64,000 nucleotides of DNA from Eledone cirrhosa (taxonomy: Eukaryota), in contig OZ024742.1 of NCBI GenBank assembly GCA_964016885.1, positions 107,074,001-107,138,000 of the forward strand, in the 5' to 3' direction. Below the pieces are notes generated by a model. That model was not told where the DNA came from, ran no database searches, and saw only the letters and a program-made list of their open reading frames with translations. Positions 20,729-64,000 of the stretch are shown here, one piece after another (positions within the stretch are counted from its first letter, which is position 1; each line of letters opens with the position of its first letter). Position numbers and translations under genes: made by a program.

Positions 20729-20932
20729 ATAACTGTAAATAATAGTTAAATATGTCAGGTAAAGTACCAGTACCACTGGAGATGGAAAAAAAATGGACTG
20801 TAACACCTGTGGGAATCAAACAATTACAGGAATTGAGAAATACATGGTTCGATTCCAACAGGTGTCTCTGTCCATTTTATTCTGTTTCTGGTGATACTTT
20901 ACCTGACATATTCAACTACTATTTATAGTTAT
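20729..20932. repeat. Foldback/palindromic element (~204 bp)
   Basis: Left arm ATAACTGTAAATAATAGTTAAATATGTCAGGTAAAGTA...ACACCTGTGGGAATCAAAC is complementary to right arm GTTCGATTCCAACAGGTGT...TACTTTACCTGACATATTCAACTACTATTTATAGTTAT. Confidence 0.85.
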
Positions 20933-49177: not shown

Positions 49178-49505
49178 TTTTCGTGGCGCCTACACATCCA
49201 CTTTACAGTGTGGGCTGGGTGCTTTTTTGCCGTGGCACCTCCACGACCACCTTGCGGTGGGGTGTGTGGGGGCATATTGTCTATATGCTTCAGCATGTAC
49301 CCATGGGAGGTCGGGTACTCTGTATTACTGCGTGACGCCAGAAGTCACGGTCGTGTGTCATTGCCTTTGAGAGGTGTAATTGGGTAAGGTCGGCTTTTAT
49401 CACCTCATCCCAGGTCATCTTGGGTCTCCCCACTCCGCGGTTTCCATCAACTTCTAGTGCTCTGCACCTTTTTAAGCAGCTGTCATCCTTCATACGCATC
49501 ACATC
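49178..49505 (-). mobile_element. RTE LINE ORF2 end plus partial 3'UTR
   Basis: ORF 49290-49502: MRMKDDSCLKRCRALEVDGNRGVGRPKMTWDEVIKADL...FWRHAV. Confidence 0.85.
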
Positions 49506-49553
49506 ACATCCGCATCACATCACATATATATGTATATATATATAAATGAATAT

Positions 49554-49737
49554 GGGAATGAGTAGGACCCCGACGGCTGAGCCCAAGCCGCCTCGACGGC
49601 CAACTCTGGACTAAATTTTAGTCCAGAATTAGCCGTCGAAACGGCCCGAGCTCAGCCATCAGGTAGCTCCACTACCCTACGTATTGAGTACTTTGGTGCG
49701 TTATGGTCCACCTGGTTCCTTACCACATTTCCTTCAT
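49554..49737. other. GC-rich hairpin-containing insert flanked by 13-bp direct repeats
   Basis: TATAAATGAATAT at 49541-49553 and 49738-49750. A 47-bp inverted repeat lies at 49569-49663. Confidence 0.75.
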
Positions 49738-49904
49738 TATAAATGAATATATATATGTATATATGTATCATCATCATCATCATCATCGTTTAATGTCCAG
49801 GTTCCACGCTTGCATGGGTATCATCATCATTTAATGTCTTTTCCAAGTATGCATGGGTTAGATGGTTTGTCTATGGTTGAGTAACCTTCCTAATACCAAC
49901 AACA

Positions 49905-50172
49905 TGGGTGCTTTTTGTCACTGCACCAGCATTACAACTTTACAGAGTAAACTGGGTGTCTTGTCATTGCACCAGCACTACTACTTTATAAGGTTAACTG
50001 GGTATTTTTTGTCATTGTACCAGCACTACTACTTTACAGGGTGAACTGGGTGTAATTTGTCATTGTACCAGCACTACTACTTCACAGGATGAACTGTGTG
50101 TATGTTTTTGTGGCACCAGCACTACTACTTTACAGAGTGAGCTGGGTGTATATTTTGTGGCAGCAGCACTGG
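49905..50172. repeat. ~47-bp tandem repeat x ~5-6 within an RTE/SINE-type 3' region
   Basis: Unit CTGGGTG..TTTGTCATTG(C/T)ACCAGCACTACTACTTTACAG.GTGAA. Confidence 0.85.
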
Positions 50173-52190: not shown

Positions 52191-52210
52191 TTGAAAGTTG
52201 AAGGTTAAAT

Positions 52211-52421
52211 TGAATTAGTAGCTTTCGTTATGTTTTTAACCTAAAAAATTAGTGTAATATCAGGTTATATAAGCCCCCAGGATGGAAAATATGGGTATCA
52301 GCACACATGGGAATCGAATCCATGTGTGCTGATGCCCATTTTTTTCTGTCCTGGCGGTTTATATGCCCTGTTATTTAGCTATTTTCTGTAGTAAAATAAT
52401 ACACCAAAAGCTACTAATTCA
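52211..52421. repeat. Foldback/palindromic element (~210 bp) between microsatellites
   Basis: TGAATTAGTAGCTTT...CCAGGATGGAAAATATGGGTATCAGCACACATGG pairs with CCATGTGTGCTGATGCCCAT...TCCTGG...AAAGCTACTAATTCA. Confidence 0.85.
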
Positions 52422-52584
52422 TTTCAAATGATGCCGTCTTCTAAAATGCAGGTAATTGTTGCATATATATGTGTGTATATATATATATCATCTCTGTTTA
52501 ACGTCCATTTTCCATGCTAGCGTGTGTGTGTGTGTGTGTGGTTTGTGGTGTGTGTGTGTGCATACATATATGCATGATGCAGTC

Positions 52585-63618: not shown

Positions 63619-63660
<42 letters not shown>

Positions 63661-63702
63661 AATACAAATATTAATAAAATAGATGTTCTTTTGATCAATT
63701 AA

Positions 63703-63755
63703 ATTTTATTATACATATTTCAGAGGTACAACAGTACGTCCTCATCAGACAAAAT
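63703..63755 (-). ncRNA. Minimal type I hammerhead ribozyme motif (copy 1)
   Basis: Exact reverse complement of 63825-63877. Confidence 0.75.
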
Positions 63756-63824
63756 ATACATGACATACCCTGAGATGTTAAATGGTTAAGATTTAACATC
63801 TCAGAGTATGTCATGTATCATTAT

Positions 63825-63877
63825 ATTTTGTCTGATGAGGACGTACTGTTGTACCTCTGAAATATGTATAATAAAAT
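63825..63877 (+). ncRNA. Minimal type I hammerhead ribozyme motif (copy 2)
   Basis: Stem I AUUUUGU/AUAAAAU, core CUGAUGA (63832-63838), stem II GGACGUAC-UGUU-GUACCUCU, GAAA (63859-63862), minimal quasi-palindromic stem III A-UAUGUA-U, and an AUA cleavage triplet ending at 63870. Confidence 0.75.
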
Positions 63878-64000
63878 TTAATTGATCAAAAGAACATCTA
63901 TTTTATTAATATTTGTATTTTAATATTAATAACTCTGGAAAATATTTTTTGTAGAGTGCTTCCAATCTACTGTAAAACTCATTCTTTGATGTACTCATTG

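Follow-up and report, generated by a model that had tools for sequence, protein, structure and literature searches.

A 184-bp insert within the 64,000-nucleotide window of the Eledone cirrhosa genome analysed here is a palindromic retroelement stump. Seven A>G changes on its minus strand are likely the trace of a hairpin RNA that ADAR edited before reverse transcription carried it into this site. The insert belongs to a large repeat family and is bounded by a target-site duplication; its one-strand cluster of changes is specific to this copy and has parallels elsewhere in the genome.

The hairpin arms (49569-49615 and 49617-49663, 47 nt each) differ at nine positions, all of them A·C on the plus strand and G·U on the minus strand. 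This one-sided polarity, and the uninterrupted minus-strand stem of about 46 bp that follows from it, had been pointed out in an earlier note made from the sequence, and both held on recomputation: the minus strand of the window copy folds into a 46-bp stem closed by a 3-nt loop. The fold energy of the 210-nt stretch from 49541 to 49750 is -112.4 kcal/mol for the minus strand (z -11.6) and -89.7 kcal/mol for the plus strand. Each of 36 unselected two-armed sister copies has 0 to 5 arm mismatches, 16 of them having none, and the polarity of these mismatches is mixed (11 A·C, 7 G·T and 13 other). The window copy is an outlier among its palindromic sisters in both the number and the polarity of its mismatches. 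Two other palindromes in the window, at 20729-20932 and 52205-52427, are older and of mixed polarity (A·C to G·T of 5:4 and 6:6), with the editing signal absent; for the first, already described as mixed, we counted five A·C, four G·T and nine other mismatches.

By sequence comparison, the insert is best described as an end piece, truncated and 5'-inverted, of a Penelope-like retroelement (PLE) that targets (TA)n and has at least 26,000 copies. In the 3.0-Gb genome, exact matches number 26,582 for a 25-mer from its tail and 27,345 for a 32-mer from the arm core. The left arm (49554-49615, minus strand) is an inverted pseudo-LTR (pLTR) copy ending at an internal CCTAT, and the right arm (49617-49663, plus strand) is a sense piece of the same pLTR. 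These are followed on the plus strand by a deletion junction at the base of the stem (49664-49669), where about 20 nt have been lost, and by the element tail (49670-49737). Sister copies sit in (TA)n, share one tail-end base and mostly have an inverted arm ending at the internal CCTAT; their palindrome centres vary, but they are otherwise near-perfect palindromes. Longer copies reach upstream through a 3' region of more than 1 kb into a frame encoding RT and GIY-YIG domains. A MITE, a Helitron and a tRNA-SINE were rejected as candidates on the grounds that terminal inverted repeats are lacking, palindrome centres are variable and longer copies enter the RT frame.

The tandem copy L123 contains an uninterrupted frame of 719 aa starting from Met (L123:2879-5236), and in tandem copies, this one included, the tail runs on into the start of the reading frame. 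The order of domains, assigned by motifs only, is RT (YRDD at 348) followed by GIY-YIG (YIG at 606). Further motifs are RWR at 37 (R for K), DKT at 117, CNCPDRSIC at 572 (CxCx5C), CNLC at 670 (CxxC) and CKH at 698 (CxH); GxKF/Y is absent from the frame, and sequence searches of Pfam and PDB with the L123 protein gave no match. The family combines (TA)n insertion, a pLTR, an inverted 5' copy, a tail and a target-site duplication, and carries the motif features of Hydra-clade PLEs, which makes it a candidate member of that clade. The passages of Craig et al. (2021, PMC8557442) on this clade of C-terminal-endonuclease PLEs describe much that is common to both: (TA)n targeting with a single RT and GIY-YIG frame; the DKT, RW[K/R], CxCx5C, CxxC and CxH motifs with GxKF/Y absent; and a pLTR hammerhead, 5'-truncated inverted copies and an optional tail. 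Set against the same passages, the present family differs in its repeat unit of about 3.1 kb, its U3-A8 hammerhead core and its tail of about 80 nt, compared with 30-40 bp for PLEs in general; editing is not mentioned in them, in contrast to the A>G clusters reported below. The family may already be listed in the supplement of that paper.

The insert lies between two exact 13-bp copies of TATAAATGAATAT (49541-49553 and 49738-49750, unstranded), a degenerate (TA)n with three interruptions. The suggestion that direct repeats resembling a target-site duplication enclose an insert of about 184 bp was correct. The opposing idea, that the repeat belongs to the element, is contradicted by exact interrupted duplications of 8-20 bp that border 8 of the 69 full palindromic copies in the loci examined, one of the eight being the window copy; of the 69, 21 were informative. 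Because comparable duplications flank these eight copies, we interpret the 13-bp repeat as a target-site duplication and not as part of the element.

The right arm also contains the 3' half of a type-I hammerhead motif (49627-49660, plus strand), made up of the 3' strand of stem II, GAAA, and stem III with a palindromic loop. The half-hammerhead string noticed earlier is real, and corresponds to the 3' half of the motif of the parent element. In the window copy, decay has turned the GUC cleavage triplet into AUC, and the 5' core is absent; the hammerhead is predicted to be inactive here because this core was lost by truncation, and Rfam gave no hammerhead match in the window stretch, which is without the core. 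The motif in the parent pLTR is a candidate ribozyme for which cleavage is at most predicted: the lowest-energy fold of L123:2800-2915 is a three-way junction with a U3-A8 core, a variant described in PMC4209133, and its z of 0.07 indicates no extra stability. The core varies among subfamilies (CUGAGAA, UUGAGAA and UUGAUAA in L204, L251 and L212), and the C3-A8 form of some of these may be inactive.

Using the majority of 88 unselected loci as the reference, we assigned a direction to each change in the window copy. On the minus strand there are five A>G changes in the left arm (49583, 49591, 49592, 49601 and 49604) and two in the right arm (T>C on the plus strand at 49646 and 49647). The remaining two of the nine mismatches, at 49658 and 49661 in the right arm, are CpG G>A changes. 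The proposal that every mismatch can be written as a minus-strand A>G is accordingly right for seven positions and wrong for the two that reflect CpG decay. Beyond these, the copy carries a minus-strand A>G just outside the stem (T>C at 49670, a possible eighth edit), an A>C at 49680, a change at the junction base 49554 of opposite polarity to the A>G set, and the deletion of about 20 nt.

The asymmetry between strands is marked: 7 of 22 stem adenosines have changed to G on the minus strand, compared with 0 of 21 on the plus strand (Fisher p 0.009). Background rates per site in 144 unselected arms are 0.95% for A>G and 0.98% for T>C, no arm carries two A>G changes, and at these rates a cluster such as that of the window copy has a chance of about 1e-9 per copy. 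Seven of the eight candidate edits fall within the stem, with one A>G in the scored flank columns. Sites with a 5' G were changed in 1 of 7 cases and other sites in 6 of 15, a difference that is not significant. The right-arm changes are missing from all 61 other copies that share its tail variant, so no subfamily explains them; one of the two right-arm sites does also vary in 8 of 145 unselected arms. A search of the assembly by the deletion junction for a parent with the same deletion of about 20 nt returned the window copy alone, and a search by the tail variant returned 62 matches, all inspected, none of them the parent, the variant being scattered over subfamilies. Collecting homologs and building a family majority, the check that the earlier note had proposed, places the cluster in the window copy, without sharing by its sisters. 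We regard it as very likely a fossil of ADAR editing, and that branch of the note is borne out by changes that are copy-specific, clustered and restricted to one strand, by the target-site duplication and by the retroelement nature of the family. The copy itself is probably functionless and likely neutral, a modest single example.

Similar clusters occur in about 0.1% of sister arms. Matches to the core with a forced AA>GG pair numbered 31, against about 2.5 expected from independent changes; removal of 5 second-arm or tandem duplicates left 26 loci, in which 40 of 182 other A had become G, compared with T>C at 1 of 156 sites. A second forced pair yielded 14 matches at 11 loci, with further A>G at 24 of 77 sites and T>C at 0 of 66. 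Forcing TT>CC gave 7 matches genome-wide (against the 27,345 exact cores), here with further T>C at 6 of 28 sites and A>G at 0 of 63, and other forced antisense pairs gave few matches (1 and 3). A transversion control, which is not a clean chance level owing to a subfamily variant at one forced site, produced 8 matches (7 loci) with three extra A>G changes in 49 sites. Five edited stretches elsewhere together hold 168 A>G changes and at most 14 of any other type. Pooled over these stretches, 5'-G sites were edited less often than other sites (19/193 versus 136/770, p 0.008), and fewer edits at such sites are reported for ADARs in the relevant part of PMC5625713. Neighbour preference was weak in the 32-nt core, where editing at the 5'-G sites was seen in 0, 6 and 9 of the 26 loci and at UAG in 11. 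Genes with an adenosine-deaminase domain are present at four loci in the genome.

Several of the edited loci have individual features. L116/L137 (G000:C4, approximately 344,877,830-344,878,500) are two copies in head-to-head orientation with about 200 nt of (TA)n-like repeat between them; the edits of both lie on one and the same strand (32 A>G in 581 columns), and the pair likely represents a retro-copied read-through hairpin. A stretch of about 1.5 kb at L202:3900-5450 (G000:C22) holds 49 A>G on one strand and spans a pair of palindromic stumps as well as part of a different Penelope-like family. The bounded stretches L195:1-2000 (G000:C403) and L197:8900-10000 (G000:C9), with 32 and 47 A>G respectively, extend into neighbouring repeats, and the (TA)n beside the former is rich in TG. 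At L131/L132 (G000:C2:53,804,099 and 53,806,896), a mirrored pair that came from the second forced-pair search, an inverted and a direct pLTR lie 2.8 kb apart and carry the same three A>G changes.

A second arm covering the core was present at 19 of the 26 loci, allowing edits to be compared between arms. Thirteen of these mirror sense-strand edits in both arms; mirrored pairs share 15 non-forced edits where shuffled pairs share 5.3 (0 of 200,000 shuffles), and at six discordant sites the A>G is confined to one arm. This mirrored class agrees with two rounds of reverse transcription on a single edited sense RNA, a picture that accords with the in vitro extension of both target strands from two start sites (PMC11167929); copying of a first cDNA that later changed is an alternative that we keep in view. 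Four of the 19 (the window copy, L084, L109/L120 and L139) are antisense-edited in both arms, with no sense edits common to the arms. All four share T33C and T34C, the right-arm TT>CC, and the three other than the window copy have 4-7 left-arm and 5-8 right-arm changes. The second arm is unedited or ambiguous at the last two loci. Two copies added by the TT>CC search, L114 and L119, show plus-strand edits in each arm. Of the three antisense-edited copies besides the window copy, two form part of longer edited stretches and seem to have been carried along as passengers in longer transcripts; the window copy ends exactly at its duplication on either side, with unedited flanks. Its own antisense evidence consists of the two right-arm changes (plus 49670), and the simplest reading, which we think probable, is that an antisense hairpin RNA bearing the sense arm and the internal start site at its 3' end served as its template. 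Together these counts suggest that most new inversions were templated by sense RNA and a minority by antisense hairpin RNA.

Genuine edits could also have been acquired with no antisense hairpin RNA ever being copied. In this view an edited sense RNA gave the left arm and a different or not yet edited RNA gave the right arm, whose two or three T>C changes arose by chance or through ADAR activity on cDNA in an RNA:DNA hybrid. Such an origin has several observations in its favour, namely the predominance of sense-edited mirrored copies (13 of 19), the polymorphism of one right-arm site and, in the section of PMC10209271 concerned, citation of ADAR action on DNA:RNA hybrids. Some unselected copies (L059 and L077) have letters from different subfamilies in their left and right arms, which indicates that two-template events also occur and that some palindromes join two templates. 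Nevertheless we consider it unlikely. The right-arm TT>CC is found in just 7 matches compared with 27,345 exact cores, yet it marks 4 of the 19 two-armed edited loci; in L084, L109/L120 and L139 the arms are about equally edited, without common sense edits, and the tails of these copies are nearly free of T>C (0-1 each).

An artefact of sequencing or assembly at hard-to-read palindromes seems highly improbable. We did not recover the window haplotype at 98% identity in independent short reads or contigs (4 runs, at most 2 samples), a result that may reflect a polymorphic insertion or filtering, and an assembly error at this one locus is conceivable. DNA reads from other individuals bear out the family letters at most of the changed sites: they carry the family T at 49583, 49591, 49592 and 49601 in 98-100% of depth; at 49604 the family T accounts for 96% in contigs but 45 of 80 raw reads. 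Against an artefact, clusters are also found in the non-palindromic copies L085 and L138, the mirrored arms of L131/L132 stand 2.8 kb apart, clusters are duplicated in tandem or inverted copies (L089/L090 and L134/L135), and they are bounded to 1-3 kb instead of spanning whole contigs and affect only about 0.1% of arms.

We give as little credence to ordinary decay or to selection keeping G·U pairs in a functional minus-strand RNA (a miRNA-like or regulatory hairpin), the other branch of the earlier note: the minus strand does fold strongly and two of the nine changes are CpG decay, but G·U brings no gain over an ancestral state that already pairs perfectly on either strand, the changes are private to the window copy with a chance of about 1e-9, and the near-perfect sister palindromes do not share the G·U pairs. 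A conserved structured RNA or miRNA was likewise rejected, as homologs show neither shared wobble pairs nor covariation. An Rfam scan of the window stretch returned weak miRNA-hairpin matches only, all below their gathering scores (best 35 bits against 79).

Returning to an edited antisense hairpin as the source of the window copy, the following route can be proposed. An older palindromic copy would have been transcribed antisense by read-through, and its RNA would have folded into a stem of 46-65 bp in which ADAR deaminated about a third of the adenosines, in both arms. The RT and GIY-YIG protein of the element, acting in trans, would have cut an interrupted (TA)n, the likely priming point being the CCUA(UA)n terminus of the sense arm, located at the 3' end of the antisense hairpin RNA. 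Inosine would have been read as G, and the 13-bp duplication would stem from joining at the (TA)n past the tail. The two CpG decays and the 20-nt deletion would be of separate origin. A broader reading, which we favour by a little, is that palindromic Penelope stumps behave as bidirectional non-autonomous retroelements whose hairpin RNA may be copied from either strand, that ADAR edits regularly become heritable and serve as barcodes of single molecules, and that inverted ends arise mostly by two RT passes over one sense RNA, with copies of the window type coming from antisense hairpin RNA.

A>G hypermutation has been seen in an avian retrovirus. In cultured human cells, 3 of 235 processed-pseudogene insertions generated by LINE-1 were ADAR-edited, according to the results presented in a preprint (PMC11702581), and these resemble the copies described here in having clustered one-strand changes confined to inverted repeats of reverse-transcribed RNA. 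That system, as set out there, is induced in cell culture and relies on the LINE-1 enzyme and on mRNA templates, whereas here we observe natural copies of the mobile element itself; unlike in the cell-culture system, both strands are used and the edits can serve as template barcodes. Deaminase clusters fixed in genomic retroelement copies are likewise known from APOBEC 'DNA editing' of LTR retrotransposons, which the account in PMC4866542 confines to vertebrates and reports absent from 19 invertebrates; those are sense-strand G>A changes made on cDNA, in contrast to the A>G changes studied here, which were likely made on RNA. Self-folding palindromic repeats and a lizard Penelope RNA are described as heavy ADAR substrates in the pertinent sections of Porath et al. 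(2017, PMC5625713), where editing was seen in RNA reads and not in DNA; the 5'-G depletion given there has a counterpart here in the five pooled stretches, but is weak in the 32-nt core. Within the literature that we searched (main texts rather than supplements, with subscription papers mostly outside its scope), no publication described ADAR-edited Penelope copies that had become fixed in a genome.

For PLE ends, the discussion in PMC3846280 attributes inverted ends to antisense self-priming and proposes an antisense template for Penelope palindromes, and the in vitro experiments of PMC11167929 show two internal RT start sites and extension of both target strands. These models and the present family agree in two fixed 3' ends (the tail end and the internal CCTAT), a palindrome at the inversion junction and a short target-site duplication. 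The in vivo template strand is left open in the relevant sections of both papers; the edits seen here point mostly to sense RNA and in a minority to an antisense hairpin. If this is true, genome sequence alone makes it testable which RNA strand PLEs copy and whether one molecule or more supplied both arms of an inverted end, questions that the parts of PMC3846280, PMC11167929 and PMC8557442 concerned with template use leave open. It would also constitute natural evidence that ADAR edits, which are usually transient, can become genomic sequence by way of a retroelement, with roughly 1 in 1,000 copies of a family of tens of thousands of members carrying written-in edits.

The window includes other repeats in addition to those above. 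At 63652-63928, a near-perfect 277-bp palindrome of another repeat family lies in (TA)n, with one substitution between its arms and a CUGAUGA...GAAA hammerhead-like motif in each; relatives of it adjoin several copies of the Penelope-like family. A degenerate 48-bp tandem repeat at 49915-50155 is related to the repeat at 49178-49277.
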